Assembly: GCA_036785375.1 (NCBI GenBank)
Contig: JAWMAR010000201.1
Location: 1 to 64,000, forward strand
Source of the DNA: Leucoraja ocellata
Taxonomy: Eukaryota
DNA: 64,000 nucleotides
Reading direction: 5' to 3'
Positions 2,755 through 53,454 of the stretch are shown in pieces (position 1 is the first letter of the stretch; every line of letters begins with the position of its first letter). The notes under the pieces were generated by a model that was not told where the DNA came from, searched no databases, and was given only the letters and a program-made list of their open reading frames with translations. Both the position numbers and the translations under genes were made by a program.

Positions 2755-2809
2755 ATGGATGTTTGGTGCCTGCTCATCTGCTTCTGGCTGTCTCTCCCCA
2801 GCACAATCC
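2755..2809 (+). CDS. SLAM/CD2-like gene A exon 1, signal peptide MDVWCLLICFWLSLPSTI
   Basis: ATG at 2755, hydrophobic 18-codon leader, phase-1 donor C|GTGAGT; paralogous to the gene B leader. Confidence 0.85.
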
Positions 2810-3089
2810 GTGAGTTTCATTCTGAGCGAGTCATTTTATTTCATTTCCCCCTCTCTGAGCGGATTTCTTTCATTTTTCCAGAACAGGAACTAAACTCTTC
2901 AAGCGTGATGGGGAAGGAGGACTTAAAAGAGGAGCACATATTGCAATATTAGTTCAGGGGTCCACTGAGGGAGCATACCATAGAATGCTCTTTGAATGAA
3001 TCCAAGTGGGCTTTTCTTCTTAATAGACCTTTCGGGGATCTTCTACATAGTTTTAAAATTGGCATCCCTATAGTCAGCAGGAGATAGAG

Positions 3090-3322
3090 AAGCACGGATG
3101 CAGACAAATTATAGAATTATGTTGGAGTAACTAAGCAGGCGAGGCAGCATCTCTGGGGAGAAGGAATGGGCGATGTTTTGGGTTGAGACCCTTTTTCTTC
3201 TGAAACCTGAGGCCCAGTCGCCCATTCCTTCTCTCCAGAGATGCTGCCTCACCCACTGAGTTACTCCAGCATTTTGTGTCCCCCTTCCTTTTAAACCAGC
3301 ATCTGCAGTTCTTTCTTACACA
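3090..3322. mobile_element. Penelope-derived palindromic short element
   Basis: Inverted arms ggagtaact..ggcagcatctctggggagaaggaatgggcga / tcgcccattccttctctccagagatgctgcc..agttactcc. Confidence 0.7.
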
Positions 3323-3789
3323 GAATGGACCCTTTGGCCCAACTTGTCCATGCTGGTCATGCTTTAGTTCATTAAAACTGATCTAGTCCCATTTGGCTGG
3401 ATTGGCCCATGTCCCTGTAAACCGTTCCTAACTATGTACTTGTCTAAATGTTTTTTTTAATAGTCTCCATTATACCTTCCTCTGCAGCTTCTTCTGGCAG
3501 CTTGTACCACACATACACCACTCTCTACAAGAAAACATTGCTCGACAGGTGTTCTAAATCTTTCTCTTCTCATCTTAAACCCATGCCTCCTGTTCTCGAC
3601 TCCTCTATCCTCTAAGGAAAAAACTGTGACCATTCACCTAATTTATGCCTCTAATGATTTTGTATACTTCTGTAAGGCCATCCTGCAAATCTCTTACATT
3701 CCAGGGTAAAAAGTCCCAGCTCACCAGCCTCTCATAACTCAAACCATCATGTCCTGATAACATTCTAATTAATCTTTTTTTCACCTTAG

Positions 3790-4076
3790 ATTAAAGGGGA
3801 GGCCATTTAAGACTGAGGTGAGAAAAAAACTTTTTCACCCAGAGAGTTGTGAATTTGTGGAATTCCCTGCCACAGAGGGCAATGGAAGCCAAATCACTGG
3901 ATGGTTTTAAGTGAGTTAGATAGAGCTCTAGGGGCTGGTGGAATCAAGGCATATGGGGAGAAGGCAGGCACGGGTTATTGATTGGGGACGATCAGCCATG
4001 ATCACAATGAATGGCGGTGCTGGCTTGAAGGGCCGAATTGCCTCCTCCTTCTCCTATTTTCTATGTTTCTATGTTT
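3790..4076 (+). mobile_element. CR1-type LINE 3' end nested in an older minus-strand CR1 fragment (~3323-4520)
   Basis: FFTQRVVNLWNSLP-like coding, conserved 3' UTR, (CTATGTTT)n tail. Confidence 0.8.
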
Positions 4077-5309
4077 CACCCTTCACAGCTCAATGGCATC
4101 CTTCCTACCACAGGGCAACCAGAACTGAACATAGTACTCCAAATGTGGTATTGACAGCTGTAATATGATGCCCCGATACCTGTCTGTCTACCTGTGTTGT
4201 CATTTTCAAGGGAACTGCGAACATGTATTCCAAGTTCTGTCTGCTCTTCAACAAACTCCAGGGCTCCACACTTCCTGTGTAATTCCTGCCACAAGTTGGA
4301 CTTAACAAAACGCATCACCTACAATTGTCCAAGTTAAATTCCATCTGCCATTCCCTGGTGCAATTCCATAGTTAATCAAGATCCTTTTGTAAATTTAGAT
4401 ATCATTTCTCATAGCCAGTATACATTCAATTTTGCTATTATTTGCAAATTTATAAACCACATTAACTACATCCAATTCATTAATATGGGCTACAGAAAAT
4501 AGTGATGTTGCAGGTAGATAGGCTGGTAAAGAATGCTTCTGGTACACTGGCCTTCATGTGTACCGAGATGCAGTAAAAAGCTTTTGTTTGCATGCTATCC
4601 GGTTAAATTAAATAATACTTTACTTGTATATAATCAAACAATACCCAAGGACAGCAAAGAGGAAAATGTTAGTGGGCTGAATATAGTTTTTAGCTTTATA
4701 GCATTACAGTTTCAGAGAAAATGTCCAATGTCCACAATAAGATAAACTGAAGGCATGGGACTACACCCTAGTTTATGAGAGAATTATTCCAATGTTAGAT
4801 CACAGAGGGGAAGAAGCTGTACAGGGTACTACCTGAGTCCGGTAGTACCCTGTACATGCTTTCAACCTTTATAAATCAACTGCCAGATGGATGTGGGGAG
4901 AAGAGGTAATCACAGAAAATTACACATAAACATTGGGGGTTATGTTACAGCTGTACACAATCTTTATGAGGCTCCACTTGGAATATTGTGTTCAGATTTG
5001 ATCACCCTGCTATAGCAAAGATGTAGGGTGTAGGTTTAACGTGATAGAGGAAAGATTTAATAGGAACCTGAGGGGCAATTATTTTCACACAAGGTGGTGG
5101 ATAAATAAAACGAGCTGCCCGATGAAGTAGTTGAGGGAAGTACAATAACAATATTGAAAATACATTTGGATATGTATGTGGATAGGAAATGTTTAGTGAG
5201 GTAATGGCAAGTCACGGGCAAATGGGACTAGATTGGATGACACATCATGGTCAGCATTGACGAGTTTGACCGAAAGGGCCTGTTTTCATGCTGTATGATT
5301 ATGACACGA

Positions 5310-6180
5310 GTGGACCCAGCCTTAATTCCTGTGGGTACACAGCTGGTCACAAACCTCCAATCTGAAAAACAGCTCTTTGCTACCACCAGCTAAATCCTTT
5401 TTGCATAACAACTAGAAATTCATTTGGTTAGCTGACCTTGGCTTCCATGTGATCTAAACTTCCGGACTTACCTACTATACAAGGCCATGTGAAAGGCCTT
5501 GTTAAAGTCCATTCAGACAACGGTCACTGCCCTGTCCTCATTTTGGTGACCTCTTAAAACAATATTTGAGAGATGTGATTTCCCCCACACACAGCCAGGG
5601 TGACCCTCTTCAATCCTTCTCTATTCAAATGCAAGTAGATCACTTGGAATCCTCTCTAATAACTTACCCACTACTGATGTCAGGCTCACTGGCCTGTAGC
5701 TCCCTGTCCTTGCAGCCTTTCTACAACATTAGCCATCCTCCAGTCTTCTGGTAACTGGCTGAACAGGATCAGGGGTCTTGCAATTTCTACCCTAACTTCT
5801 TACAATGTCAAAGAATACACTTAGTCAGGCCATGGGGACTTATCTAACTTAATACCTTTAAGAAGCTAGTACCTCCTCTTTTGTAATTTAGATGTTGTCC
5901 AACATATCACGACTCACTTCCCTTAAGTCCATTGCATCCGTCCTTCTCCATGGAAACAAAACTGAGAAGTATTCATTAGTGACTCGACACATAGACGACC
6001 ATGTTGACCTCTATGGAGGTATATTCTCTCACTTGTTGCCTTTGTACTCTTAATATAGCTCCAGAATCTCTTAGCCATTTCCATTATTGTCTGCCAGAGC
6101 TTCCTCATGTCCTCTTTTTGCCCCCTGATTTCCCGCTTCAGTGTACTCTAATACATCTGAGGGATTTGCTTGATCCCAGT
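5310..6180 (-). mobile_element. Degenerate CR1 RT fragment
   Basis: Minus-strand remnants such as KRFWSYIKS and gactttaacaaggcctttcacatgg (DFNKAF). Confidence 0.55.
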
Positions 6181-6986
6181 TGCCATAGGCCTCCTTGTCA
6201 GATGGGATTTCATCTTCTCCAGCATTGTTGGGATCTTATTGGTGTGAAAGGCAAAGAGGTGGGTAGCTTTTAAAGTGAGCCCAGGGGAGCTTTAACAGTC
6301 ACCAAAAGTCTTACGGACTTTTTTGATGGTTATGGTAAGGAATACAGATTGGGGGAAGTGATTTCAATATCATGAGATTGGATCTGGCAAAACTACACTG
6401 GGAGCAACTTGTGTGGTGTCACAAGTGGGAATCATTCAAAAGTGAAATAATGAGAGTTCAGGTCTAACTTGTTCCCATTGGGTGAAAGGCAATGAACTCT
6501 GGGTGTCAAAAAATATCAAAGGCTGGATAAAGAAAGTCAAGTGACAGCTACAGATAATTGAAAGCAGGTGAGGGCTTCAGAGGTATAGCAAATATAGAGG
6601 ATATTTAAAATAGAAATCAGTGAAGTGGCAGAGGGGTGAGTAAGAAAGGTCATGAGATATTATTAGTGGACAAGCTTCATACCACCCATATCTTTCCATT
6701 TACCACGTTTTCTCGTAATGTTCAACTCCCCCAATGCAACGACTATTTTCCGAACTGAGTCCCATCCATGGGTATCTGGCTGTAGGCTGTAACTTCCTTC
6801 CTCAGGCCAGAGTGGAGAGAGTCTTCACTCTATTCCTCCCTTTGGCTCATTGTGTGACATAAGAACCGTGGGCCGGTCTCTCACAGAGCCGGGAGCCAGG
6901 CGCCGGGCCGCATGGCCTGCTCCTGTGCTCATTGACTCTCCTAGCTCCTCCTCCTCTTCTGCTGACTGCCTCTCTTGTTTCCTTAG

Positions 6987-7307
6987 CTGGGCCGGAGGCT
7001 CTCCCTCCCACTGTGAACGGAGCACTGGGGCACTCGATCTCCTTATCTCCTGAGATTGCAGGTGGACTGGACATTGGCAAGATTGAGTGGAGGAAAACAT
7101 CGCTCAGAAGCAAAATAATAGAATTCTCAAAGGGGAATATTTCATACTTCGGAATTGAGGAGTACGGGCGACGGATCACTTTTCATCCCAAGAGTTTAAG
7201 TCTGGAAATCCGTGATCTACGGAGAGAGGATGCTGGTGATTATGAGGTGACAGTTATTACACGTTCAGGAACTGAAATTCTGTCAAGAATCCGACTGGAG
7301 GTGTACG
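6987..7307 (+). CDS. SLAM/CD2-like gene A exon 2, IgV domain without the canonical disulfide (GPEALPPTVNGALGHSISL...IEW...SLEIRDLRREDAGDYEV...RLEVY)
   Basis: Acceptor tctcttgtttccttag; 321-nt phase 1-1 open exon; donor G|GTGAGT; V-set motifs (C-strand W, L-x-I-x-x-L-x-x-x-D-x-G-x-Y) with no Cys, typical of CD2/SLAM N-domains. Confidence 0.88.
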
Positions 7308-10390: not shown

Positions 10391-10686
10391 CTGGGAATCA
10401 ACCCGAGCCACAGACTGGCTGGAGCTGGAGGTGGAAATTACCAACATCGGCCAAGTGTTGGTTCCTGGCCTCGCACCTGTACGCAATGTCCCCGACCTCT
10501 GCTGTGTGATGACCCTCTGCCATCACTCCATGTCCACGGGGGTGATGGGTGCTGTCATTTTCCAGAGCTTCTCCTCTCCTCACCACCTGATGCTGGTGGG
10601 GTTGCCGGAGGTCATGCAGCAGGTCAGGGTGAAGTTGCAAATTTCGGCGATGTTCTGAGGCCTGGTCTGTGTTCCTGCCATGGGCT
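10391..10686 (-). pseudogene. Inverted, disrupted SLAM-type IgC2 exon (EPMAGTQ...EICNFTLTC...RW* / frameshift /...HHTAEVGDIAYRCEARN...C)
   Basis: Clear paralog of the C2 exons at 24672 and 44839, with the same acceptor ctgccccaacctcag; in-frame TGA and frameshift after RW; upstream intron homology continues on the - strand to ~11700. Confidence 0.85.
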
Positions 10687-11129
10687 CTGAGGTTGGGGCA
10701 GAGAGAAAAAAGATGAGTAAAGGAGATCTTTATGGACCCCTTGATACCTACAACCCGTCTCCAACAGCGATGAGTGAATGTTAGGCCGATCCCAGCTCAT
10801 TTCCACCCACCAGTTTAACTCATCCATCCACCTTCAGTTCAGCCAGTTGAAAGAAATCCACACGTGTGCTGCGTGCGCCCCCTTCCCGACCACTGCCCCC
10901 CCCCCCACTCATCCACAAACTCTCCACTGTGTCCTGCTTGTGGACCTGTACCCTGGGAATTCTCTCCAGTTCCATGTCTTTAATCATCCTATCATTGGCC
11001 CCGTGTCCCTTATGCACCTGAGCATGACCCAGCCCAGAACTGCCCTGAACCTGCCAACAGCAGCAGCCCTAGGACTGTGATGGGCACAGACCCAGACTGG
11101 GATAGTGTTCATGAGTTCATAGTTCTTTA

Positions 11130-15225: not shown

Positions 15226-15280
15226 ATGGATATCAGGTGCCTGCTCAGCTGCTTCTGGCTGTCTCTCCCCGTCTCAATCC
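15226..15280 (+). CDS. SLAM-like gene B exon 1, signal peptide MDIRCLLSCFWLSLPVSI
   Basis: ATG 15226, 55 nt, phase-1 donor C|GTGAGT, in frame with the V exon at 20913. Confidence 0.85.
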
Positions 15281-16231: not shown

Positions 16232-18034
16232 TGGATGCTTACAGTTTCTGAACCCTTCCATAAGCTAGGGAACTCTCTTTTCACCTCTACCACATGGCCG
16301 TGATTGGACTTTGTATATGGAACTGGTGTGCTACAATGCTGAGAAATATATTCTGCACTTTGTTTCTGTCGCTTTGTTCGACCTATTGTACTTGTGTTTG
16401 GCTTTGTTGTATTTCTGTATAGTTTGTATATCAAACAAAGCTTTTCATTGTACTAGGTACACATGACAATAATAAACCTAAACCGAAACCAAAAGTCTGC
16501 CCATTACCTTTCCATCCCTCTACTAGGAGAAGGTGTTTGACAGAATAGATCACAGCTAACTTCTTGGAACCCTGCACGCCATTGGGCTTAGGCGACATTG
16601 TGTGGCCAGACTCCTCGGTCTTTAGTACATAGCCACAGGATGCCTGGTGAAGGTATACGTATTTGTCCTTGACGGTGTACCTTCACTTTGGAGTGAAGTA
16701 CATTGAGGATGCTCCAGTAATTACAACCCTAACATCAGAGGTAGGGGAGTTATTGGAAGAAAATAAGACATGATTAATCACTTTGAAAGGCAAAGATTAG
16801 CCAAAGATTGTCAGCTTGGTTTTATTCCACTGTGACCTATTAGGAAGTGGTGACAATATGTATTAATTAGGGCATATAATCCACCTGCATACCTATAAGA
16901 TCTTTGACATTGGAGACTAGACAAAAGGTAAAGATCCACAGGACCCAGAGCAAGTTGACATTGGCTCGATAATAGGAAGCAGAATGATGGTGGAAGGTTG
17001 CTTCAGTGATCGACAGATTACAACCAACGATGTCCCATAGAGATCTGTGCTGTGACCCATAAAGTTTATTGACACAGATAACACAAACATTGGCTATTTT
17101 GTTGACATAAAGGACAACAGTTATAGACTACAGGATGATATTGATGAGCTATTAAAATGGACAGAACAATGACAGATGGAATGTATACGGATAAAGATGA
17201 CCCGAAACATCATCCATTCCTTCTAACCAGAGATGCTGCCTGTCCCGCTGTTACTCCAGCATTTTGTGTCTATCTTATAGGGAAACACAACTCTGGGTTC
17301 ACACCTTCCATCCTCCCCCCTCTAAACCTTCCCAGTGCCAGTAAATGTCTGGCCTTGTTCTCCGCTTCTGATATGCGAAATGCACCATCCCATTTACTCT
17401 GTTCAGGTCCCTCATCACTTCATACCCCCTCGATCGTCCCCCTCAGCAACCTCTGTTCCACGGCAAACAACCTCAGTCTCTAGTTTTTCCTCACAGCGAC
17501 AGTTCCAGTCCCAGCAACGTCCTGGTAAATCTCCCTGCAGTTTCTCTAGTGTGACCTGTCTCTCCTGGGTGGTGGTGCCCAGAACTGTCTGCAGGGTCAG
17601 GCTGGGTCTAACTACTGTTGGGCACAGTTACACCATCTCCAGTTCTTACATGGTCTCTGAGCCTCGACTAAAGGAAAGCAGCCCGTCTGCCTATTGGCCT
17701 GTACCTCGATCTTCATGGATCTTTACACACCAAGTGCCCGCTCCCAGTTCCTTCTGCTCCCCACACCGCCCACCCCCTTTCTTTTACTCTGTATTCACCA
17801 CGTGCACCCTTCTCCGGACTGGGTCCCATTTGCCGTGTCTGTGTCTCGTTACCCATGCATCGAAATCGGGCTGCAGGCTGTAACTTCCTTCCTCAGCCCT
17901 GGGTGCAGAGTCTTCACTCTGTTTTCATCGTGGGCTCACTGTCTCAATTTATCACATTTGAGCATTGAAGAATACATGGAGCAGAATTCCTGCTGGCGAG
18001 CACATATTTCACAGGGCAACAGGAGGAACGCACC

Positions 18035-19181
18035 CAGGGCCGGATTTAGATGAAGAGAGGCCCTAAGCTATTTCACTTGTGAGTCCCCTCCCAATCCCCC
18101 ACCCCCATGACTAGAGGACCATGACTACCCGACAGTGACAGTGACACTTTTAGATCCTACTGTATGCTGTCATTAAACAGTTGGTTTTAAAATACATATT
18201 GGATTCACCACAGAGCGAGCGATGCGTTACCTGGATCGCCGTTTGAAGCTCTGGAGTGTTGGGCCTGCTGCTTCAACATCATGGAGCTGTGGTTTGCAGA
18301 GCTCCCAGCCTCGGGCTGCACTGATTTTAATATCACGGAGCCCTGGGAACCCTTTGCCGAGGGCCACCAGCGTAAATCTCCACCCAGCTCAGCCTGTAGA
18401 CTTCGGTCTCTAGTAGGAAGTGGCCCATTCCGAAATCCAAGCCACTGTGAATGGTCTCCCGTTCCGACGTCGGATGTTGACCCCCAAATTTCATTTTAGC
18501 AATCGCGATGAGGAGGGTCCAAGAGGAGGAGATCCGTTGGAGACGGGAAAAGGGATCGTCAATGGGGGGGCTCCAATGCTACAAATCGCGGTGGGCGCGG
18601 AACTCATTGAGGTGGGGATGGAGGGGTACAAAGGTGAGACCTCTGCTGAGGACAGACCGTTCAGTATCAGAGAGGGGGAGGTCAGGGGGATGGTGAACAC
18701 ACGGCAGGGATGGGGGTTGGGGCCGGAAGGCAGGTGAGTGGACTGAGGCCGAGGCGATGTCTGGTGGGGGGGTGGTCAGGGGCTAGGGGGGAACGAGGAA
18801 TGCAGTGTGGGTGGGGAAGAGCTGGGATCACATGGTTTGAGGGGAATGGGGAAGACCCAGTGGAACAGCCACTGAGGTTACCAGGGTTGGGGGGACTAGC
18901 ACTAGGATCCAGCGCAGTCAAACCCAGGGTAGTGGGAGTCTGCAGCGTGGTACCTCAGGCCTGGCACTGAGTCCAGGCTGCAGGTAAGGCGACGGCTGCG
19001 GGCTGCTGGAGGGCGGTGGAGTGGCCAGGGTCAGCGGGCAAAGAGTACGAGGTTCCGGGGGGCGGATGGTCAGTGAGGCGGCGAGGTTCGACTGGTCCGG
19101 TGAGGCAGTGAGGTGAATAGGCCCCCTAGTTCTCGAGGCCCTAAGTTTAAGCTTGTCTAGCTTATACGTAATCAGGCCCTG
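18035..19181. mobile_element. Non-autonomous hAT-like DNA transposon, 1147 bp
   Basis: TIRs CAGGGCCGGATT / AATCAGGCCCTG; 8-bp TSD AACGCACC/AACGCATC; empty site visible in paralogous copies at ~20346 and ~50305. Confidence 0.85.
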
Positions 19182-19397
19182 AACGCATCAATAGCATTAC
19201 ATGGCAGAATGACACCTATGCCCAGCCCATGCAGAAGTAAATATGACAACCTTTCCCTCTGCTGATACAAGAATGGCTCCAGGCAAAGGGAATGCAGCTG
19301 GTAGGACGTAGGCATCCTTGATGTATTCCTGTCTGAAAGTGAAGCGCGCTGTCCATCCACATCCTGAAGGTGTGCAGATTTGTACGTTCATTGGCCT

Positions 19398-21343
19398 CGG
19401 TCGATGATGGCACCGACTGACCTATGAGGACAGACACGTGGAAGTGTGGACGTCACTGCCGAGGGAATTAACAAAGAACGACCTGGCATGAGGGGACCTC
19501 CATGAGGGAGGGGGAAGAACAATGGGACCCGGCGTTGGGGGAAAGGGCTTGGCATGAGGGACAGGGCAGAACGATGGATATTGCAGAACCTGCCGTGAGG
19601 GGGGAGAAAAACGGGAACCTGGTGAGGGAGAACTTTGTAACTTTGTAAGCACCTTTTAGTGGCGACTATTTGCATACCTTGGTTGGGCAAGCAAACAATT
19701 TCACTGTGACTCGTCACGTCTGACAATAAAGTGTTCAATTCAATTCAATTCACAATATTCCAAATGTGGCCGGACCAACGCCTTGTAGAGCCTCAGCAGT
19801 CCATCCCTGTTTATGTGTACGACCCCTCATGAAATAAATACTAGCATTGCATTTGAATTCTTTACTGCCGATTCAACTTGCAGATTAACTTTTTGGGAAT
19901 ATTTCACCAGCACTCCAAAGTCCCTTTGCACCTCCGATTTCTGGATTCTCTCCACATTTAGAAAATAGTCTACACCTTAATTACACTATATTCCATCTTC
20001 CACTTCTCTGCCCACTCTCCCTACCTTTCCTAATCCTTCTGCAGAGTCCCAGCTTTCTCTACATTACCGGCCCCTCCACCTATTTTTCACATCCACAAAC
20101 TTGGCCACAAAGCCTTCAATCCCTACATCCAAATCATAGCTGAATGGTAACTGTCACCTCCAGTTGCTGCCAATTTGTTGGCAGCCTTCCAATTACTAGA
20201 GGAGGTGGGTGTTGCTTTATGTTTTCTCTGCCAGATACTTGACCACTCACTGACTTGCTTGGATCCCATAACATTTCTCACATTTGCGCATTGAGTAATA
20301 CATGGAGCAGAATACCTGCTGGCAAGCACATAGGTCAACAGGAGGAACGCATCAATAGCATTACATGGTAGAATGACACCTATGCCTGGCCCATACAGAA
20401 CCAAATATGACAACCTTTCCCTCTGATGACACACGAATGGCTGCGGGCAAAGGGAATGCAACGGGCTGACATGGGGCATCCATGATGCATTCCTGTTTCA
20501 AAGTGAAGCACGCTGTCCATCCACATCCTGAAGGTGTGCAGATTTGTACGTTCATTGGCCTCCGTAAAATTGCTCCTAATGTTCAGGCAGTGGATGGGCA
20601 AGTGAGATTGTATAGAACTCGTGTGAATGACTGATCGATGGACGGCATTAACTCGATGGGCCAAAGGGTCTGTTTCCATGGTGTAAAAAAGTAAAGGGTG
20701 CTTTCAGGAGCCCGTTTACAATCACCAACAGAATATGCACCCTGTTCCCTCCGTGGGCTCACTGATGCAGGGACTGTGGGCTGGGTATCTCACGGAGCCG
20801 GGAGCCAGACGATGGGCCGCATGGCCTGCTCATGTGCTCTGTGATTCTCCCAGCTCCGTTTCCTCCTCCAGTCACTGAGCTCTCCTACTGACTGCCTCTC
20901 TTGTCTCCACAGCTGGGACTGGGGCCGCCGCTGGCACCGTGACCGGAGCTCGGGGACACTCCGTCTCCTTACCTGCTGGGATCACAGTCGCACCGGACAT
21001 TACGGATGTGGTGTGGAAGCGGAAATCGCCCAGATTCAGGATAGCGGTATACGCGAATGAGAAGATGAATTACTTTAACACTAATTACACGGGACGGGTA
21101 ACTCTTCACCGCAGGAACTTCAGTTTGGAAATCCGTGATCTACGGGGAGAGGACGCGGGTGAATATGAGGTGACTTTTGTAATGAGTTCAGGAGATGAAA
21201 CTCACGCAAGAGTCCGACTGGAGGTGTACGGTGAGTGAGACTGCCACAAAGGTCCCGGGTTTCACCAGCTCCTGAACCCATCTAATTAACAGGCGGGGCA
21301 GATCCTGTGCATTCCCCAATTTACTGAACCCCACTGACTGCCA
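19398..21343. repeat. Inverted segmental duplication copy 1 (intron + V exon), partner ~49311-51260
   Basis: ~2 kb colinear reverse-complement match, including shared TE insertions. Confidence 0.92.
20913..21230 (+). CDS. Gene B exon 2, Cys-less IgV domain (GTGAAAGTVTGARGHSVSL...VVWKRK...SLEIRDLRGEDAGEYEV...RLEVY)
   Basis: Acceptor tcttgtctccacag, 318 nt phase 1-1, donor G|GTGAGT. Confidence 0.92.
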
Positions 21344-22039
21344 TCAATCTCCCATGTGCTCTGCTCTCCAGCAAGTGATGTCTTGTCTGTGCTGCTTACG
21401 GTGGCTCAGCTACGCGAATGTGACTGCAATTTTACCCACTCCTGTCCCCGACACCTTTCATGATGTTAACTTGTAGGAATGGTTTGAAGAGTATGTACAT
21501 CCCGACATGAATAAATAGAGATAACTGTGTGATGGCTGGGGTTGTTGGCCCTTCAGCCATTGTCGCGGCCTCCAAGATATCAGGAAAGCCTGTGTTCCCC
21601 CTGAAGATCGTGCCTGGCCCCGAATGAGGAGGTCGCGAATGGTGAAGTTTTCCTGCCACTGGGCTTACAATGTTCCAACGGGATTTAGGGGGAGAATGCA
21701 GAAGAATGGCGTTAAAAGGGAAATATAGATTAGCCATGTTTGAATGGTGGAATAGACGATGGGCCGAATGGCCTAAGTCTGCTCCTATCGCTTATGAACT
21801 TCTGAACATATATATATGATGGTTAATAATTTTACAACGTCCTGCTCTTCATACCTGATGAGCTCCACCTCCCCACCTGCGCCCTCTAGTGGAGGTGTGG
21901 TCAGATATCAACCCCTACCCCCCCCCCCCCCCCCCTCTATCTTTTGGAGAACATGTTGTCATGTCTTTACGACTTGGCATCAGCTGATCATGTTCATAAC
22001 TTCTAGGAGTAGGTAGGCCATTTGGCCATTCAAGTATTC

Positions 22040-23980: not shown

Positions 23981-24671
23981 TATAAGATGTATATTATACA
24001 GATCATATTCCTGCTCCAATTAATAAAGTCTTGCCTGCCCAAACTCTCCCTATAGCGTTGGCCCTCACGTCCTGGCCACATTCTTGTAAATCTTCCCTGT
24101 ACTCTTTCCAGCCGAACAGCATCCTTCCTGTAGCAGGGTGACCAAACCTGAACTCCATTAACCATTCGTCAGCTCACCTGCCCAACTAATCAAGATCCTA
24201 CTACAATAGGTGACCCAGGATCTGCACGTGCTGGATTCACTCTGGAACACAGCACGCTACCCAGTCTGGGTCTGTGTCCGTCACAGTCCCAGGGCTGCCA
24301 CTGTTGGCCAGGTTCTGGGCCGGTCTGAGTTGGGTCACACTCGAGTTTTTAAGGAACACTGGGACCACTCACAAATGACAAAAGATATGGAACTGGAGAG
24401 ATTCCCAGGGAACAGAGCCATAAACAGGACACAGTGGAGAGTTTGTGGATGAGTGCGGGTAGTGTTCGGGAAGGGGGCACATCACACGTGTGGATTTCCT
24501 CCAGCAACAACTGGCTGAACTGAATGGGGAGGGAAGAGTTAAACTGGTGGGTGGAAATGAGCTGGAATCGGCTCATTCGTGGGTCGTGGCTGTTGGAGAC
24601 GGGTTATGGGGTATCGAGGGGTTTACAAGTATCTCCTTTACTCATCTTTCTTCTCTCTGCCCCAACCTCAG

Positions 24672-24953
24672 AGCCCGTGGCAGGAACACAGATCAAGGCT
24701 AAGAACATCACTGAGATCTGCAACTTCACCCTGACCTGCTTCGTGACCTCTGGTGGCCCCATCAACTTCACGTGGTGGAGGGAAGCTGTGGGAAACGACA
24801 ACACCCATCACCTCGTGGGACATGAAAAGACAATACAGGTTCATCACACAGCAGAGGTCGGGGACGTTGTGTACAGGTGTGAGGCCACGAACCCGGTCAG
24901 TGAAGGCACGGCACAAATCCGGCTGAAGAACATCTGCAAACAGACCACATCTG
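24672..24953 (+). CDS. Gene B exon 3, SLAM-type IgC2 domain with four Cys (EPV...ICNFTLTC...W...YRCEATNPVS...IC)
   Basis: Acceptor ccaacctcag, 282 nt phase 1-1, donor G|GTGAGT; CxxxLxC...YxCxxxNPVS...C pattern of CD2/SLAM second domains. Confidence 0.92.
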
Positions 24954-25032: not shown

Positions 25033-28000
25033 GTTTTTTTTTCCCTTCCAAATACTTTATTCAATAATTGCATATTACAGTGTACCAGAAAGTACAAAAA
25101 CGTTCAATAGTCACATTGCATCAGGCAATCATCATAAAACACTAATGGCATCTTTACAATGCATTCATTGTAAAGATGCGGAAGGTCATTGTTCATGGAA
25201 GGCCACCAGAGTCCCCGTGGACACCACATGTTCCCTCTCCTGGGACATGCGAGCACAGACATAGGCCTGGAAAAGGGGCAGGCAGCCGACTTTAGTGTGG
25301 CCATTGACTGGACCTGGAGCAAACCGACAGAGAGATCCTACCCTCCTGATCGACAATCCCCACTCCCTGCCTTGTGCCCAAATACCAGAATCATGGGACT
25401 AAAATGCAACCAGAACCAGAGGAACAGCCCCTTCAGATACTCATACAGGGGCTGCAACCTCTCAAGCTCCATATACACGTGGTACACGGTCTCGTTCTTG
25501 CCACAGAAGTTACAGACAGTTGCCTAGTCTGTGAATCGAATTAAACATTTGTTACACACCACGTCTCTGTGCAACACTCTGCACCCCAGGTCTCCGATGT
25601 AAAGGAGGAGACCTCCACTGGGGACCTCTCCCGCCGTCAGGTGATAACTCAGACCGCCAGGGCGTGTCCGGATGGAAGACGAGGGTGAGGAAATGGTGAG
25701 TGTGCAGGAGCAATCTGCACGGAATGGCACGCTGGGCATCTTGGAAAGGCGGCTCGTGTTGTGTAGGGCCGGCTCCCAGGAAAGATTCCGGGACCTGGTC
25801 TCAATGGGCAATTCTGACAAGTGTGACAAAAGATATGGAACTGGAGAGATTCCCAGGATACAGAGCCATAAACAGGACACAGTGGAGAGTTTGTGGAATA
25901 GTGCGGGCAGTGTTCGGGAAGGGGGCACATGACACGTGTGAACTTCCTCCAGCAACTACTGGCTGAACTGAATGAGGAGGGAAGAGTTAAACTGGTGGGT
26001 GGAAATGAGCTGGGATCGGCTCATTCGTGGGTCGTGGCTGTTGAAGACGAGTTATGGGGTATCGCGGTGGTCAGCTCGGTCGGAATCATTCCGAGCACTC
26101 GCCTCTTCTCAACGCCCACCATGACAGGGTGAGGACTGGCCACCCTCGCAGTTACAACACCCTCCTCCCCCTGAGGAGCAGCACACTGGCTGAAGGTGAC
26201 CAGATTCATAATTCTCAAGGCATCACGGTAGAAACTGTGCAGATTCCATGTGGTGGGTCGACTGATGCCCGCCACCGGGATCTGCAAACCCCCCTCTAGG
26301 CAACGGCCTTGGCGGAAAATATACGTGGTCAGAGTGTGCCATCTTGGAGGATGTTCTGCATACACGTACCTCCGCAGGGTCCTGAGACGGAGGGCCCCCA
26401 CCTGAGTACGCACGCATAGCAAGGATTGGCCACCCTCCTCTAACGGGAGACTCAGGCCCGCTACGGAAACCCAGTGCTTCTTGTCCCCCCAGAGGAAACT
26501 CACTAACCTCTTCTGTATCAAAGGCAGATGGCGGGAGAAGAGTGGCCAGCTGGTACCATAACATGCAGGCCACCAGCACTCTACCTTCAAAGGTCAAGCC
26601 CTCTGAGCAAGACTGACCAGCGTCCCAGCCAGGCGACGACTTTCGTCTCCAACTTCTGCCAGTTTGTTGGCCAAGCATCCTCAGTGGGATTTGGGTAGAT
26701 GCCCAGGTAGAGGAGGTGTGTAGTGCTCAACGCATAAGATGTCATCTCCTCCGGTAGAGAGTCCACCTGCCACTGACTCACCAAAAGTCTGGAACACTTA
26801 CTCCAGTCGATCCTGGTGGAGGATGCGGCCGAGAAAACATGCTGGCACTCGCGTCTCCTCCGCAGGGCAACAGGGTCAGTGAACATAAGGAGCACATCGT
26901 CGGCGTGGGCCGAGAGAACAACCCCCAACTCCCGGTCCTGGCAAAGTCAGGCCTGTCAACCGCATCCGAAGAAGACACATGAACGGCTCCACACACACTG
27001 AGTACAACTGACCAGACATGGGACACCCCTGGCGTACCCCCCTCCCAAAGTGAATGGGTGCCAACAACGAACCATTTAACTTTACGTGGCACTCCGCTGG
27101 GGCGTACAAAAGCCGGACCCGGGCCACAATATGCGGTCCAAATCCAAACGCCTGCAATGTCCCAAAAAGGTAGTGATGATCTACCCTGTCAAATGCCTTC
27201 TCCTGATCAAGGGATAGAGAAGCAACTGACTGACCAGCCCCCTGGGACAATTGGATCAGGTCCCTAACCAGGTAGATGTTTTCTTGAATGGACGAGCCAG
27301 GGACTGTGTAGGACTGGTCCAGGTGGATCAGTCAGGACAGCATGAAACCCAGGCGATTTGCCATTGATGGGGCAAAAACATTATACTCTGTACTGAGGAG
27401 AGAGACCGGGCACCAGTTCTTCAACAGGTGAAGATTACCCTTCTTGGTTAGCAGGACAACGACTGCCTGCACCACAATAGGGGCATCTCCCCGGTCACCA
27501 GGCTCTCCCCTAGGACCTTTGTGTAATCCCCCTTGGACATCCCAGAAGGCTCTAACAAACTCTATGGTCAGCCCATCTAGCCCTGGTGCCTTACCCCTCC
27601 TGTGCAAGGCACCAGTCAACTCCTCCAATGATATTAGGTCATCAAAGAGTTCAACCTCCTCTATAACTTCCGGAGCCGGGCCGCCCTCACGGGAGTGCCT
27701 TCCAGTTTGTACCTGGGGTACAAACCAGAACCGGAAACAACAGCAGTTTGAGCTTAAAAGCGGTCTCGGAGTCTTTTAGACTGACTCTGAGACCGCTTTT
27801 AAGCTCAAACTGCTGTTGTTACTGGTTCTTTTAGAGCAGCAGAAGCAGTTCTCTCCAGCCAAGCAAGGAAAACGCCCACGCTTATCTTCTCTGCTGGGGG
27901 CAGCTTTAGGAGGCTTTTACCAGGTCTTCCGAGCCTCCAGAAACTGCCGGATTCAAAAAGTACCTTCTCTTTGTTTATGCCCAGGCAACCTGGTCTGGGC

Positions 28001-28466: not shown

Positions 28467-28565
28467 GGTTGAGTAGCTGTCTCCGTGGATGTTGGTTGAG
28501 GGCCACGGTCGCAGCCGTCCTGCTTCTGATTCTCATCTCAGTCACTGTCGCCACCCACATCATCA
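28467..28565 (+). CDS. Gene B exon 4, stalk plus Arg-containing transmembrane helix (GLSSCLRGCWLRATVAAVLLLILISVTVATHII)
   Basis: Acceptor cctcttctttcaccag, 99 nt phase 1-1, donor A|GTGAGT, in frame with exon 3; not listed in the ORF track. Confidence 0.85.
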
Positions 28566-31460: not shown

Positions 31461-31510
31461 GCGCCCGCCCTGTCAGTGGAACTGCAGACAGGCCTCACAA
31501 GACTGAATGA
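31461..31510 (+). CDS. Gene B exon 5, short tyrosine-free cytoplasmic tail SARPVSGTADRPHKTE*
   Basis: Strong acceptor tcctatctctctccccacag, phase-1 continuation, TGA at 31508-31510; total CDS 804 nt = 267 aa. Confidence 0.7.
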
Positions 31511-32443
31511 CTTCCCCTCACCTCTTTCCTTCTCCACATCTGCTTTTCCACCTCCCTCTGCCACTGCTCCTCACTCACTTCCCTTCCTCTCCTCTTCCCC
31601 ATTTTCTCTTTCCTGTCCCTCTCCTTCCCGGCACTCCTCCCCGTACTTCCCCTCTCGCACTCCCTACTCTACAAAGGGAAGTCAGCAGTAAGGTCGGGAG
31701 GGTGAGAAGAGTTATGGCAGCCAGGGGTGGGGAGGGTGAGGGACGGATAGGGAGGAGAGATAGAGAGAAGTGACAAAGGATAAGAGGAAATGAAGGTAGA
31801 GGGTTCGGGTGGGAGGGAGTGGGTGGGTGGGTGGGCAGAGGTCTCAGGAATAAGAAGGGAGATGGAGGGGTTAGAAGGAAGATGGTTGGCATGGGGAAGG
31901 ACAGATGAATGAGGGAGGATCATAGGGACAGAGAGTGGGGGAAGGGCAGAGCAGAAGGAGGTCTGGAGGTGTAAAGAGTAGAGTGAGGATGGCTGGGTGG
32001 GGCTGTGGATTGGGTGAGCATGGGAATGGAGGCTGCCTGATGGGGAGAGAGGAAGAGAATGTTGATTGGGAATGGCAGGTGACAGAGTGATCAGGGGTCC
32101 GGAAGCCGTGAGGAGGTCGAAGGACTGAGGTTGGAGTGAGAGAGAGTCTGGGAAGGAGAAGAGGGTTTGAGGAGGTGAGGTGTTGTAACTGCGAGTCGAG
32201 CAGGTGAGACCGGGAAGGGAGAGCGCCGTGGACACAGAATCAGAAGAGAGCCTGTGCCCAACCAATGATCCCAAGAAACAGCGGACAGTTCCTGGAACCA
32301 AAGGCGGCTGCAAAGGTTTCCACTTGTGTTTGTTCTGTGATGAAATTGCCAGTTTGTCTGTAATGACCGGACATCCCCTCCTCCCCTCCTTCCTCCCCAT
32401 TTCCTTCACTCTCCCCCTCCCCCCCTCCCCCTTCCCACCTGTA

Positions 32444-41004: not shown

Positions 41005-41127
41005 TCATGGCTCACAGTGCTGGGACTTTCCAGGGGCGTCCGGTGATCCAATGCCTGAGGTCCCAGGAAGGTTGATAGTATCATACACGGAGGCAATGAT
41101 CCCCATTCTCTCCTCCTCACTCTGAAC
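41005..41127 (-). CDS. Gene C exon 6, distal cytoplasmic tail with ITIM-like SVYDTI and stop
   Basis: Acceptor ctctgctttctctacag, phase 0, VQSEEERMGIIASVYDTINLPG...HCEP*. Confidence 0.82.
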   Translation of the reverse strand, partial: VQSEEERMGIIASVYDTINLPGTSGIGSPDAPGKSQHCEP

Positions 41128-41214
41128 CTGTAGAGAAAGCAGAGAGTGTTCACAGCAAAGGGACATTGTGCTCTGGATGCACTCAACTGTGTAAAGAGAA
41201 GGAGGCATAGCACA

Positions 41215-41410
41215 GTGACTAGGTGTGTGGGGACAGGGTACCCTCGTAACTGGTGTGTGGGGACAGTGAACCCCAGTAACTGGGTAGATGGAGGAGAGTG
41301 TACTCCAGTAACTGGCGGTGTGGGGACAGTGTACTCCAGTAACTGGGTAGATGGAGGAGAATGTACTCCAGTAACTGGCGGTGTGGGGACAGTGTACTCC
41401 AGTAACTGGG
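41215..41410. repeat. Minisatellite in the last intron of gene C (gtgtggggacagtgtactccagtaactgg, ~63 bp higher-order unit)
   Basis: Direct observation of tandem units. Confidence 0.85.
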
Positions 41411-41521
41411 TGTATGCCCATTTTTAACCCTGGCCTGGCTGGGGATAGTGAGCGTGGTCTCTAGGATGAGGGTTCAGTCCCACTGACCCCCTCTCCCATG
41501 GGTCAGAACATGTCCCGTTAC

Positions 41522-41610
41522 CGTTTTGTTTCCCTCCGGAGGCTGCTGTTTGTCAGGACGTCTCTGTGGTTGCTCGACCTGAGCGTAGACAGTCTCCGTG
41601 GGCCCTGGGT
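41522..41610 (-). CDS. Gene C exon 5, cytoplasmic segment with ITSM TVYAQV
   Basis: Acceptor ctctctctctgccccacag, 89 nt phase 1-0, donor ACG|GTAACG; DPGPTETVYAQVEQPQRR... Confidence 0.85.
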
Positions 41611-42156: not shown

Positions 42157-42279
42157 CTGCTGGCCCGTCCCTTGTTGAATAGCGTTTGAAGAAAATCACA
42201 ATGGCAAAGACCACAATGGCAACTGCCACAATGACAAGGACCGATATCAATGGAATTATCCATGCTCTATTCCCTGGAT
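42157..42279 (-). CDS. Gene C exon 4, neutral transmembrane helix (DPGNRAWIIPLISVLVIVAVAIVVFAIVIFFKRYSTRDGPA)
   Basis: Acceptor ttttctcctctccag, 123 nt phase 1-1, non-canonical GC donor CAG|GCAAGT; KR stop-transfer. Confidence 0.85.
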
Positions 42280-43212: not shown

Positions 43213-44344
43213 GTCTGTGAGAACCTATCAACTCCCACAGTTATCTGGACAATACTTCTTCCCACCTTGCCTCAATCAGTCTAAAGAAGTATCCCAACCA
43301 AAGCCTCACCTATACATGTTCTTCAGGGATGCTGCCTCATCCACTGAGTTACTGAGCGTCCAGGAGCGGAAAAGGCTGCAAAACATTGTATCCATTGCCC
43401 AGTCCATCATCGGCTCTGACCTCTCTACCATCAAGGGGATCTATCGCAGTCGCTGCCTCAAAAAAGTTGCCAGCATCATCAAGGACCCACATCATCCTGG
43501 CCACACACTCATCTCCCCGCTGCCATCAAGTAGAAAGTACAGGAGCCTGAAATCTACAACATCTAGGTTCAGGAACAGCTTTTCCCCACCGCTATCAGAC
43601 TATTAAACACAACTTCAAACAAACTCTGACCTATAACAGCCCATTGCACTTTATCAGTTTATTGATGTGTGTATATCAAGAACCAGAACAAGGGGCCGCA
43701 ATCTTAGAATAAAGGAGAGGACATTTAAGACTGAGGTTGATCATATGCTGAACAATCCAACCACATCTTTGTTTGGAAGTGGAAAGAAATAATAGAAATT
43801 GCATTCATTGCAATGTGTAAAACGAGTTGAGATACTGTATTATAATTTTGCTGCATGTCATCATGGCTTAATTTGTGAATATGTTTAGTTTGTGACTTTA
43901 TTTGAAGCAGAAATAATATGTGAATGCTTCATTGAGCATAATTCCGACTGGTAACTACGCACTTCGTTCGAGCACATTATCGCATGCGTCATGCAAGCCG
44001 CCTTAAATGACCACCTAAACTGTCATTTGGCAACTTAAAAAGCTGCCAAGGTTGCCCGGCTGAAACCAGAGAAAAAAAATGAAGTGAGTGCCCTGCAAGG
44101 TGTATAATATTTTTGACACTGTCATAGGCCTTTCTTACACATGCTGTCACAACGCACCGTAGTCTCTAAACAACCCTTCAGTAATTTTCCTTGCCCTCCA
44201 TTTCAGAATAATAGTGTTTTAAGCCAATAACTCGACACTAGCACTGGCAATAAATAAATGAACAAATAAGCGCCATTTTCCAGCCCCTTATCTCATTGGC
44301 CATGCTCGGCTGCAAATCGGTGTCAATCTGGTGGACCATCTTCC

Positions 44345-44425
44345 TCTTGTCGTGGAGGTGGGGGATTGGGAGGGGCCCCACAAGTGGAACAGCTTAGGGC
44401 CTCTCTTCATCTAAATCCGGCCCTG
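44345..44425 (-). mobile_element. Terminal fragment of the same hAT-like family as 18035-19181
   Basis: Reverse complement reads CAGGGCCGGATTTAGATGAAGAGAGGCCCTAAGCT. Confidence 0.7.
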
Positions 44426-44557: not shown

Positions 44558-44839
44558 CAGATGTGGTCTGTTTACAGATATCCCTCAGCCGGATCTGTGC
44601 TGTGCCCTCACTAACCGGGTTCGTGGTGTCACACCTGTACACAACGTCCCCGACCTCTGCTGTGTGATGAACCTGTATTGTCTTTCCATGTCCCTCGAGG
44701 TGATGGGTGTTGTCGTTTCCCGAAGCTTCCTTCCACCACGTGAAGTTGATGGGGCCACCAGAGGTCACGAAGCAGGTCAGGGTGAAGTTGCAGATCTCGG
44801 TGGTGTTCTCAGCCTTGATCTGTGTTCCTGCCACGGGCT
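44558..44839 (-). CDS. Gene C exon 3, SLAM-type IgC2 domain
   Basis: 282 nt phase 1-1 exon with canonical splice sites; 10 aa differences from the gene B C2 exon. Confidence 0.92.
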
Positions 44840-49310: not shown

Positions 49311-51260
49311 CTGGCAGTCAGTGGGGTTCAGTAAACTGGGGAATGCACAGAGTCTGTCCTCACCCATTAATTAGACGGGTTGAGCAGCCAGTGAAACACG
49401 GGACCTCTGTGGCAGTCTCACTCACCGTACACCTCCAGTCGGACTCTTGCTAGAGTTTCATCTCCTGAACTCATTACAAAAGTCACCTCATATTCACCCG
49501 CGTCCTCTCCCCGTAGATCACGGATTTCCAAACTGAAGTTCCTGCGGTGAAGAGTTACCCGTGCCGTGTAACTGGTGTTAAAGTAATTCATCTTCTCATT
49601 CGAGTATACCGCTATCCTGAATCTGGGCGATTTCCGCTTCCACGCCACTTCCGTAATGTCCGGTGTGACTGTGATCCCAGCAGGTAAGGAGACCGAGTGT
49701 CCCCGAGCTCCGGTCATGGTGTCAGCGGCGGCCCAAGTCCCAGCTGTGGAGGCAAGAGAGGCAGTCAGTAGGACAGCTCAGTGACTGGAGGAGGAATCGG
49801 AACTGGGAGAATCACAGAGCACAGGAGCAGGCCATGCGGCCCATCGTCTGGCTCCCGGCTCCGTGAGATACCCAGCCCACAGTCCCTGCATCAGTGAGCC
49901 CACGGAGGGAACAGGGTGCAGATTCTGTTGGTGATTGTAAACGGGCTCCTGAAAGCACCCTTCACTTTTTTACAGCAAGGAAACAGACCCTTTGGCCCAA
50001 CGAGTTCATGCCGTCCATCGATCAGTCATTCACACGAGTTCTATAAAATCTCACTTGCTCATCCACTCCCCGAACATTAGGAGCAATTTTACAGAGGCCA
50101 ATGAACGTACAAATCTGCACACCTTCAGGATGTGGAAGGACAATGCGCTTCACTTTGAAACATGAATGCATCATGGATGCCCCATGTCAGCCCGTTGCAT
50201 TCCCTTTGCCCGCAGCCATTCTTGTGTCATCAGAGGGAAAGGTTGTCATATTTGGTTCTGTATGGGCCAGGCATAGGTGTCATTCTGCCATGTAATGTTA
50301 TTGATGCGTTCCTCCTGTTGACCTATGAAAGATGTGCTTGGCAGCAGGTATTCTGCTCCATGTATTCCTCAATGCGTAAATGTGAGAAATGTTATGGGAT
50401 CCAAGCAAGTCAGTGAGTGGTCAAGTATCTGGCAGAGAAAACATAAAGCAACACCCACCTCCTCTAGTAATTGGAAGGCTGCCAACAAACTGGCAGCAAC
50501 TGGGGGTGACAGTTACCATTCAGCTATGATTTGGATGTAGGGATTGAAGGCTTTGTGGCCAAGTTTGTGGATGTGAAAAATAGGTGGAGGGGCCGGTAAT
50601 GTAGAGAAAGCTGGGATTCTGCAGAAGGATTAGGAAAGGTAGGGAGAGCGGGCAGAGAAGTGGAAGATGGAATATAGTGTAATTAAGGTGTAGACTATTT
50701 TCTAAATGTGGAGAGAATCCAAAAATCGGAGGTGCAAAGGGACTTTGGAGTGCTGGTGCAATATTCCCAAAAAGTTAATCTGCAAGTTGAATCGGCAGTA
50801 AAGAATTCGAATGCAATGCTGGTATTTATTTCATGAGGGGTCGTACACATAAACAGGGATGGACTGCTGAGGCTCAACAAGGCGTTGGTCCGGTCACATT
50901 TGGAATATTGTGAATTGAATTGAACACTTTATTGTCAGACGTGACGAGTCACAGTGAAATTGTTTGCTTGCCCATCCAAGGTATGCAAATAGTTGCCACT
51001 AAAAGGTGCTTACAAAGTTACAAAGTACTCCCTCACCAGGTCCCCGTTTTTCTCCCCCCTCACGGCAGGTTCTGCAATATCCATTGTTCTGCCCTGTCCC
51101 TCATGCCAAGCCCTTTCCCCCCACGCCGGGTCCCATTGTTCTTCCCCCTCCCTCATGGAGGTCCCCTCATGCCAGGTCATTCTTTGTTAATTCCCTCGGC
51201 AGTGGCGTCCACACTTCCGCGTGTCTGTCCTCATAGGTCAGTCGGTGCCATCATCGACCG
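49311..51260. repeat. Inverted segmental duplication copy 2 (partner 19398-21343)
   Basis: Reverse-complement match. Confidence 0.92.
49426..49743 (-). CDS. Gene C exon 2, Cys-less IgV domain
   Basis: 318 nt phase 1-1 exon, acceptor cctccacag, donor G|GTGAGT; 10 aa differences from the gene B V exon. Confidence 0.92.
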
Positions 51261-51970
51261 CCGCTCCGACCTGTCCATTATCACCACCGGGTCCTCTCTT
51301 GAGGCCTCCGTGGCACCGACCCAGGTCCCAACCGCGGGCTCCTCTGACCCAGGTCCCAACCGCGGGCTCCTCTGACCCAGGTACCATTGTCCGCGTGGCT
51401 TCATCGACACGCGAGGCTCCACCTCTGACCCGCGAGACTCCGCCCCGTGAGATTCTGACCTGCGAGGCTCAGACTCCAACCCTTGAGACTCTACCTCCGA
51501 CCCGCGAGGCTCCAACTTTGACCCGCAAGGTTCCGGTTCGCGCTCCAGCCGGCGAGACACCGGCCCACGAGGCCCAGCCCATGAGGGTCCGGCCTCGGCT
51601 TCTCATGGGCACCTCTGGAAGGCGTCAGCTGCAGCAGCACCTCTGGAGCTATATCTGAGGAAGGATGTTCTGGCTCTGGAGAGGGTCGAGAGGAGGTTTA
51701 CAAGATTGATCCCAGGAATTAATAGGTTAACATATAATGATCGTTTGACGGCACTGGGCCTATACTCACTGGACTTTAGAAGAATGAGGGGGGACTTCAT
51801 TGAGGGAAAGTCAGTGGATATATTTAAGGCAGAGATAGATAGAATCTTGATTAGTACGGGTGTCAGAGGTTATGGGGAAAATGGGGTTATGAGGTAGAGA
51901 TGGATCAGCCATGATCGAATGGCAGAGTAGACTTGATGGGCCAAATGGCCTAATTCTGCTCTTATCACTT
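50540..51970 (+). mobile_element. CR1 fragment split by a minus-strand retroposon (~50912-51640) with 21-bp internal repeats
   Basis: CR1 coding resumes at ~51645 (YLRKDVLALERV); inserted element has tandem-repeat tail aattgaattgaa. Confidence 0.75.
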
Positions 51971-53387: not shown

Positions 53388-53454
53388 CCAAACATCTGGC
53401 AAAAAGGTAGGCACAGAACAGGCAGACAACACTTCTTGAGGAGAGCCCCCACAT
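53388..53454 (-). CDS. Gene C exon 1, putative signal peptide MWGLSSRSVVCLFCAYLFARCL
   Basis: ATG in aagATGt context, 67 nt, phase-1 donor G|GTAATG in frame with the V exon; ETS/PU.1 motifs immediately upstream; total CDS 1002 nt = 333 aa. Confidence 0.7.

Follow-up and report, generated by a model that had tools for sequence, protein, structure and literature searches.

Homogenisation between the genes of paired receptors is already known in mammals and frogs, as set out in the accessible text of three reports (PMC5701461, PMC4042635, PMC5112662), and long-tract gene conversion that is ended by end-joining, with microhomology or with added bases, is described for mouse cells in the accessible text of a fourth (PMC5104497). 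In the open-access literature searched, no account was found of homogenisation of cartilaginous-fish SLAM genes, and none of conversion polarised by transposable elements (TEs), of skate SLAM pairs or of SLAMF concerted evolution. We analysed a stretch of 64,000 nucleotides from the skate Leucoraja ocellata (contig JAWMAR010000201.1, positions 1 to 64,000, called the window below; 64 kb), which is a predicted CD2/SLAM-family cluster with three immunoglobulin (Ig)-superfamily genes, A, B and C, surrounded by fragments of CR1 elements, short interspersed elements and DNA transposons. Genes B and C lie in opposite orientation, 30 kb apart, and share a block that spans part of intron 1 and the V-set (V) exon. 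An initial annotation had proposed that this whole block was copied from C into B in one event, replacing the V region of B. Our analysis indicates that the intron part very probably moved from C to B, as the second of two insertions of the same shape, and that the V exon most likely has a history of its own.

Results

A nested transposon that is whole in gene C and cut in gene B

The shared block, B 19398-21343, corresponds in inverted orientation to C 51260-49312 (1954 aligned columns, 95.6% identity, 1.95 kb). It starts abruptly inside a retroposon-like repeat, as the initial annotation had pointed out. At this start, the younger junction J2 (19398..19399, + strand), an upstream intron copy in B, named B1, ends at the equivalent of 20562 and the sequence jumps to C 51260 with a single base of microhomology, a net addition of 1164 bp. 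To the right of J2, B carries the 3′ half of the repeat (19398..19752, + strand), which ends in AATAAA followed by TTCAA repeats and whose repeat status is taken from depth and class from its tail, and then a CR1 half (19753..20137, − strand), the other half of which is present only in C. In intron 1 of C the nested TE is complete (50913..51969, − strand): one CR1 half lies at 51969-51645 and the whole retroposon at 51644-50913. The continuations of both elements are missing from B, again as had been noted. A second copy of the 5′ part of the retroposon (C 51261-51644, 384 bp) was not found in the window, C 51645-51969 has no match in B between 15281 and 19397, and no third copy of the nested TE was seen in the window. 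When the retroposon is removed, the two CR1 halves of C align collinearly with two independent CR1 copies of the window (57% and 62%), with a gap of 10 bases where the insertion had been. Since the nested TE is whole in C and cut in B, it points to a transfer from C to B unless a deletion followed. At the other end of the block in C, a GC-rich sequence (49050-49312, − strand), of which the window holds no other copy, begins exactly where the block ends and is probably a TE insertion that caps the B/C homology.

An older copy of the same intron stretch and a second junction

B1 (17947..19398, + strand) is an older C-like intron copy which is 12-13% diverged from both C and B2, the copy within the block. 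The diverged upstream copy first delimited at 17950-19397 was described as having its own hAT insertion, and B1 indeed contains an element of 1147 bp (18035..19181, no strand assigned) with terminal inverted repeats matching at 11 of 12 bases and an 8-bp target-site duplication (18027-18034 and 19182-19189, one mismatch), features from which we infer that it is hAT-like. A fragment of the same family (44342-44425, 84 bp, 92%) is found in C just past the end of the homology between the C2-set (C2) exons of B and C. A three-way comparison over 290 ungapped columns gave 30 private sites for B1, 4 for B2 and 7 for C, with 34 differences between B1 and B2, 37 between B1 and C and 11 between B2 and C. 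From the private sites, B2 groups with C, as the initial annotation had it, and the two copies of B do not group to the exclusion of C. A tandem duplication internal to B was considered as the source of B2 and rejected on these private sites. The last 63 bp of B1 (19336..19398, + strand) form a young tail in which none of the 30 B1-private sites falls (exact p 0.0004; p 0.013 for any gap of this length).

The native end of intron 1 of B (17762..17942, + strand) is homologous to the intron of gene A (6678-6853; 66% over 187 columns) and has only 35 bp in common with C. At the older junction J1 (17942..17947, + strand) this native intron ends at the equivalent of 20764, and after 4 unaligned bases the sequence continues at the equivalent of C 50390, a jump back that adds about 500 bp. 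J1 and J2 have the same shape: in each, the sequence of B breaks off slightly to the right of where its homology with C starts, and the upstream intron of C follows. Because both junctions add sequence, they depart from classical gene conversion, which has homologous ends and leaves length unchanged. What was initially proposed as an ectopic conversion or insertion therefore holds as an insertion and not as a classical conversion, and an earlier insertion of this kind preceded it.

Contigs from other organisms at the junctions

Contigs from four of 24 listed runs (X1, X4, X6 and X10, one per organism) were aligned to 17400-21600; the results cover 32 listed pieces (56,246 more exist) and 40 listed variant rows (273 more). 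All four are DNA runs; no RNA run was among those listed for this stretch, which has no bearing on expression. Three of these pieces sit at 19398, and none of them fits B to its left. The piece from X4 has 6 unlike letters before 19398. That from X10 has 7 and crosses the joint of retroposon and CR1 at 19752, which identifies it as the same insertion. The piece from X6 has 393 letters left over before 19398, compared to about 391 expected for the rest of the retroposon of C. Three other organisms thus appear to have a C-type continuation at this position. This continuation and the nested TE, which is complete in C alone, lead us to regard it as very probable that the intron filler, 19398 to about 20500, moved from C to B.

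J1 is bridged by contigs in X1 (17869-18032, 0 differences) and X10 (17402-18061, 23 other letters over 660 bp), which indicates that J1 is real and predates the split of the X10 species. X10 shows J1 and, among its listed pieces, no sign of J2; its bridging of J1 makes J1 the older junction. Joints skipping 19399-20562, 17943-20764 or the hAT-like element were absent among the 15 joints listed (221 more exist); contigs would in any case be broken at these places by the 43-63 bp that are shared. Cover is absent at 19301 and 19307 in X1 and X10, and this was not counted as evidence of absence.

Divergence within the block

The block consists of three strata (all + strand). The C-derived intron filler (19398..20499) is the youngest, with 26 differences in 1097 columns (2.4%), followed by a middle stratum with the V exon (20500..21248; 33 differences in 749 columns, 4.4%) and an old stratum right of V (21249..21343; 14 in 95 columns, 14.7%). 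The filler and the middle stratum differ in divergence (Fisher p 0.021; non-CpG p 0.038). The boundary at 20500 was set independently, from the private sites of B1, and the best change point between B and C, 20492, lies no more than 10 bp from it (p 0.008). The right edge at 21248 is sharp (4.4% vs 14.7%, p 0.0003). Of the extent originally given to the block, the start at 19398 therefore stands; the young part ends at 21248 and not at 21343, and the last 63 bp of B1 are young as well. Identity between B and C is also not uniform along the genes: alignment scores of the leader, the 5′ flank and the transmembrane exon are at the level of shuffled sequences. An origin of B and C by whole-gene duplication was rejected on these scores. 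The ratio of non-synonymous to synonymous change between B and C gave no selection signal, either in V (11 non-synonymous, 2 synonymous, p 0.53) or in C2 (12 and 6, p 0.26).

The V exon as a probable patchwork

The V exons of B (20913..21230, + strand) and C (49426..49743, − strand) encode 95 identical residues out of 105. Trees were built from 31 of 70 cartilaginous-fish proteins, selected by hand because they had V, C2 and either a tail that could be classified or clear orthology, with tail labels assigned by us; the 39 proteins that were multi-V, truncated or of another tail type were left out, as were 4 non-fish matches. Two proteins are informative for the comparison. P0004 is the Amblyraja ortholog of the V and C2 of B and reads on into the own intron of B (91% over 103 residues). 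P0012 is a C-type protein with 95-98% identity to gene C in leader, C2 and tail exons and only 80% in V (window 49426-49743). In the V tree B and C form a clade (100/95), while the C2 tree joins C with P0012 (100/98). Placing B with its Amblyraja ortholog in V was rejected (approximately unbiased test, p-AU 0.003), as was a single clade of all C-tail V domains (p-AU 1e-57). In Rhinoraja (99/98), Pristis (100/99), Hemitrygon (100/97) and basking shark (100/100), V domains that belong to different tail types group within the species; stingray and devil-ray C-tail V domains are an exception and cluster by gene (100/99). Tails score by type across species. Clustering is thus by species in V and by gene outside it, as in concerted evolution, and the ectodomain homogenisation of the Siglec kind that had been suggested for this locus is supported. 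No C-tail Amblyraja protein was among the matches of the protein searches.

At seven V residues (K35, R42, V45, E49, M51, V89 and M90) B and C are alike against both P0004 and P0012. At other positions each gene agrees with its own relative: B with P0004 at V33 and N57, C with P0012 at E31 and S57, and C with both proteins at T26 and S47. Since B and C each keep residues of their own relative, a copy of the whole exon in either direction would have erased one of these sets. The seven shared residues all fall on strands C, C′ and C″ and the F-G turn of the V structure model (p 0.004 under a uniform distribution; p 0.026 among variable sites). In CD2/SLAM proteins this face is the ligand-binding face. 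In the model, their placement would fit matched ligand recognition by the two receptors.

The listed contigs add to this picture. X4 has a single V contig. It carries the letters of B at 21012 and at 21053, the two listed places where B and C differ, together with the derived letters at positions 21039, 21048 and 21060 (three of the four derived letters listed), and despite these B-type V letters the 19398 junction is not seen among the listed pieces of X4. Another V type, with P0012-like letters at the listed places, occurs in X1; gene C may therefore be dimorphic for V type. These V contigs hint at B as the source of the central V patch. Gene A is too distant (71%) to polarise the exon: at the 18 B/C differences up to 21248, A agrees with B at 8, with C at 4 and with neither at 6.

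Taken together, the V exon is most likely a patchwork of short conversions, whose direction the window does not give; with the limited outside data we lean towards a transfer of the central patch from B to C. The initial proposal of a transfer from C to B is upheld for the intron piece, where the TE is whole in C and relatives appear to be C-like. Its second half, that the V exon was replaced in the same event, is probably wrong, given the 4.4% against 2.4% divergence, the gene-specific residues that were kept and the X4 contig.

The C2 exons (B 24672..24953, + strand; C 44558..44839, − strand) are 93.6% identical, with flanks that are 9-18% diverged, and are mosaic as well: B, C and P0012 are alike at 7 residues against the Amblyraja ortholog, and 6 gene-specific residues are kept in B. 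Downstream of the C2 exon of B, a reverse-oriented L1/Tx1-like element contains a 244-bp copy (25824-26067, 94%) of B intron 24376-24619, which is possibly a templated insertion.

Gene structure and family membership

The leader exon of gene B (15226..15280, + strand) is paralogous to that of gene A (87%) and unrelated to that of gene C (53388..53454, − strand). Downstream of V and C2, gene B has a stalk and transmembrane exon (28467..28565, + strand) with an Arg where the membrane span starts (CWLRATV), and a last coding exon (31461..31511, + strand) encoding a short tail without tyrosine. In gene C the transmembrane exon (42157..42279, − strand) has an uncharged span and is followed by two cytoplasmic exons (41007..41610, − strand), 41610-41522 with TVYAQV and 41127-41007 with SVYDTI. 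The spliced frames of both genes are open. The transmembrane exon of C has a GC splice donor (42156, − strand), and P0012 has the same junction at the protein level.

Gene A, used as outgroup for the native intron of B, consists of a leader (2755-2809) and a V exon (6987-7307) only (2755..7307, + strand). Its V exon is followed by a C2 exon that is inverted and frameshifted and has kept the intron upstream of it (10410-11118, − strand; 80% to that of B), and a second transmembrane exon was not found within the window. The Rhinoraja protein P0041 is an intact ortholog of A with an Arg-type tail, and the Amblyraja annotation P0004 joins the V of A to the V and C2 of B. Gene A would therefore be either a pseudogene or the lender of a second V to B. 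A long, A-rich element resembling a long interspersed element (about 57300-62000, − strand), in which zinc-knuckle, endonuclease, reverse-transcriptase and RNase H parts are discernible by eye, also lies in the window.

CD2/SLAM proteins are marked by a V-set domain at the N terminus that lacks the B-F disulfide and, after it, a C2-set domain in which cysteines are conserved. Both genes fit this layout: their V exons are free of cysteine and pass the Pfam V-set model, and their C2 exons encode four cysteines and pass the Pfam ig model. The structure model of V has strands A′, B, C, C′, C″, D, E, F and G (predicted local distance difference test score, pLDDT, 90.6). The V of gene C has CD2 and CD84 as its top PDB matches (E 2e-5) and narrowly passes Pfam Receptor_2B4 (21.6 bits vs a cut-off of 21). 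The likeness is weaker for the V of gene B, for which pIgR chains come first by whole-sequence score and CD84 is the best single stretch. The best named protein matches are from skate, the top one from Amblyraja radiata (80%), and named batoid matches are mostly annotated as SLAM, Ly-9 or CD48-like, by automatic naming.

The immunoreceptor tyrosine-based switch motif (ITSM) in CD2/SLAM tails has the consensus TxYxx(V/I). The tail of gene C agrees with it in TVYAQV, and most C-type relatives have T(V/L)YDTV where gene C has its second motif, SVYDTI; a tyrosine motif is absent from gene B. The Arg of the B-type tail is kept in 8/8 B-tail proteins from 6 batoid species, and in the basking shark 3/3 counterparts carry a Lys in a similar position (aligned by eye). 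As far as sequence can tell, B and C have the features of paired receptors, with near-identical, linked V domains, tyrosine motifs in C and a charged transmembrane span with a short tail in B, and we predict that B is an activating-type and C an inhibitory or switch-type CD2/SLAM receptor.

Discussion

The direction of a transfer between paralogs is usually hard to read, and in this locus a cut nested transposon gives it for the intron. The limit of the argument is visible at the same place: a TE junction polarises only the DNA that adjoins it, so that the filler is polarised and the adjoining V exon, whose direction would be supported by contiguity alone, is not. On balance we favour the explanation that the ectodomain exons of B and C exchange DNA ectopically and that intron 1 of B records two one-ended repairs, in which the V exon served as the anchor and is not proven to be the cargo. 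Each repair would have started from a break close to where the B/C homology begins on the left, 35 bp into the homology for J1 and 63 bp into its near-identical part for J2. The end of B on the V side would then invade C, copying would run leftwards past the homology, for about 0.5 kb at J1 and later for 1.16 kb at J2, and the copied end would be joined to the other end without homology. The sequence at the older of the two junctions is about 12% diverged and that at the younger about 2.4%. Separate short conversion tracts, clearest at residues 35-51 and 89-90, would account for the likeness of the V domains. By analogy with known paired receptors, conversion might preserve the match between the ligand faces of two receptors whose tails signal in opposite ways.

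Several observations weigh against this explanation. A free change-point scan of the block was not significant (p 0.19; non-CpG 0.29), a split at the junction-equivalent 20563 gave only p 0.056-0.071, and the V exon alone (non-CpG 7/267, 2.6%) is not clearly more diverged than the filler (19/1039, 1.8%). A single event with a template slip would also account for the young 63-bp tail of B1. P0012 may stand to C as allele, ortholog or paralog, grouping C with P0012 in V was only marginally rejected (p-AU 0.049), and B could have regained V33 and N57, which are common in other paralogs, from a third gene. J2 is bridged by none of the contigs listed in the four runs, for which reason it is known from the assembly alone; contig depths are not copy numbers, and contigs collapse variants.

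The strongest of the competing explanations, which we nevertheless consider unlikely, is a refinement of the initial proposal, a single transfer from C to B. It would begin at homology in the last 63 bp of B1, slip back to C 51260 and copy through V as far as about 21248; noise, or later small conversions and selection, would explain why divergence is higher to the right of 20500. The contiguity of the block, its sharp right edge, the young B1 tail, the lack of significance in the scan for an inner change point and the B and C clade in V all agree with it, and template switching at such breakpoints is described in the accessible text of two reports (PMC5104497, PMC4888836). It is at odds with the divergence step at an independently set boundary, with the absence from B of E31 and S57, which C shares with P0012, and with X4, where B-type V letters and the derived motif occur together with a C-type run-on at 19398. 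The donor could instead have been another allele of C or a C-like paralog outside the window, so that B-C divergence would overstate the age of the transfer and the strata would reflect donor haplotypes. An X1 contig (20105-20562) differs from B at 4 letters and a 7-bp gap, compared to 13 letters and the same gap for the C of the window, the third V type of X1 matches P0012 residues at the listed places, and skates have at least 5-7 such genes. That contig may, however, be a majority path through collapsed variants, and the window shows no third copy of the nested TE. We consider such a donor improbable, and a C allele in this role would leave the C-to-B direction of the filler unchanged.

Transfer in the opposite direction would require that B once obtained the whole nested TE by an internal tandem duplication, gave it to C and then lost its left part by deletion. 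One base of microhomology suits a deletion as well as an insertion, but three events are needed, relatives appear to be C-type without a break at 19398, X10 has J1 with no sign of J2, and the native intron of B is A-like and not C-like; this sequence of events is very improbable. We give even less credence to an assembly chimera between haplotypes. The unbridged junction at 19398 and the lack of depth in X1 at 19301 and 19307 would be expected of one, and at 19573, 20369, 20434 and 20735 no covering contig has the letter of B (X6 is without cover at 20434). The block in B nevertheless differs from C throughout, its B-specific flanks are matched without difference in X1 (17400-18032 and 21251-21566), the 3′ part of B1 is found in X4 (19193-19385, 2 differences), and assemblers presumably join at long overlaps and not at one base.

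Two one-ended repairs with a patchwork V exon thus stay our preferred explanation. A more speculative extension, which we regard as possible but rather doubtful, is that the intron of B is built of stacked one-ended captures, each extending the B/C homology and feeding further conversion, and that a new patch of the ligand face arose in the activating gene and invaded an inhibitory gene polymorphic for two V types. If these stacked captures and the B-to-C patch are real, then, with the conserved Arg/Lys transmembrane exon, adaptor-coupled SLAM pairs would be an old, independent system of cartilaginous fish under recurrent homogenisation. Dated and directed transfers of this kind could also test whether decoys chase inhibitory receptors or the reverse.

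The closest described pairs are SIGLEC11/SIGLEC16 (PMC5701461) and SIGLEC5/SIGLEC14 (PMC4042635). In the accessible text of these reports they are, like B and C, inhibitory/activating pairs with a converted region of about 2 kb that includes the V-set exon. The genes group by species within that region and by gene elsewhere, and an older, less alike stratum adjoins it. The leaders of B and C are unrelated, which implies that conversion spares the 5′ exon. Unlike the Siglec pairs, B and C belong to a CD2/SLAM-like family in the skate lineage, and their boundary is, twice, a non-homologous insertion junction, whereas the accessible text of PMC5701461 reports no sequence motif at tract boundaries. 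The same texts describe ligand binding tests for Siglecs, whereas B and C are known here from sequence alone.

The CEACAM pairs of Xenopus (PMC5112662), as their report describes them in its accessible part, resemble B and C in their opposite orientation, in patchy conversion of the N/V exon and in changes concentrated on the CC′C″FG face. Conversion is confined to the exon there, whereas the sequence shared by B and C includes 1.5 kb of TE-bearing intron, and their activating-type member carries an Arg in the membrane span and lacks an immunoreceptor tyrosine-based activation motif (ITAM). The CD2/SLAM expansion of Xenopus (PMC4536121), in the accessible text, has members with a positive transmembrane residue that would pair with ITAM adaptors, as B has, the motif being NxxR in Xenopus and GCWLR in B. 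Long-tract conversion as presented in the accessible text of PMC5104497 resembles J1 and J2 in having one homologous end and another joined by microhomology or added bases, with the donor copied beyond the homology. Those were reporter assays in mouse cells with a sister-chromatid donor, whereas J1 and J2 are germline events with a paralog donor, read from sequence, and occur twice in one intron. The two junctions of the same shape thus provide a natural example of a repair outcome known mostly from reporter assays, and this locus adds to the described systems a second scar, a likely one-ended mechanism and a receptor pair of the skate SLAM family.

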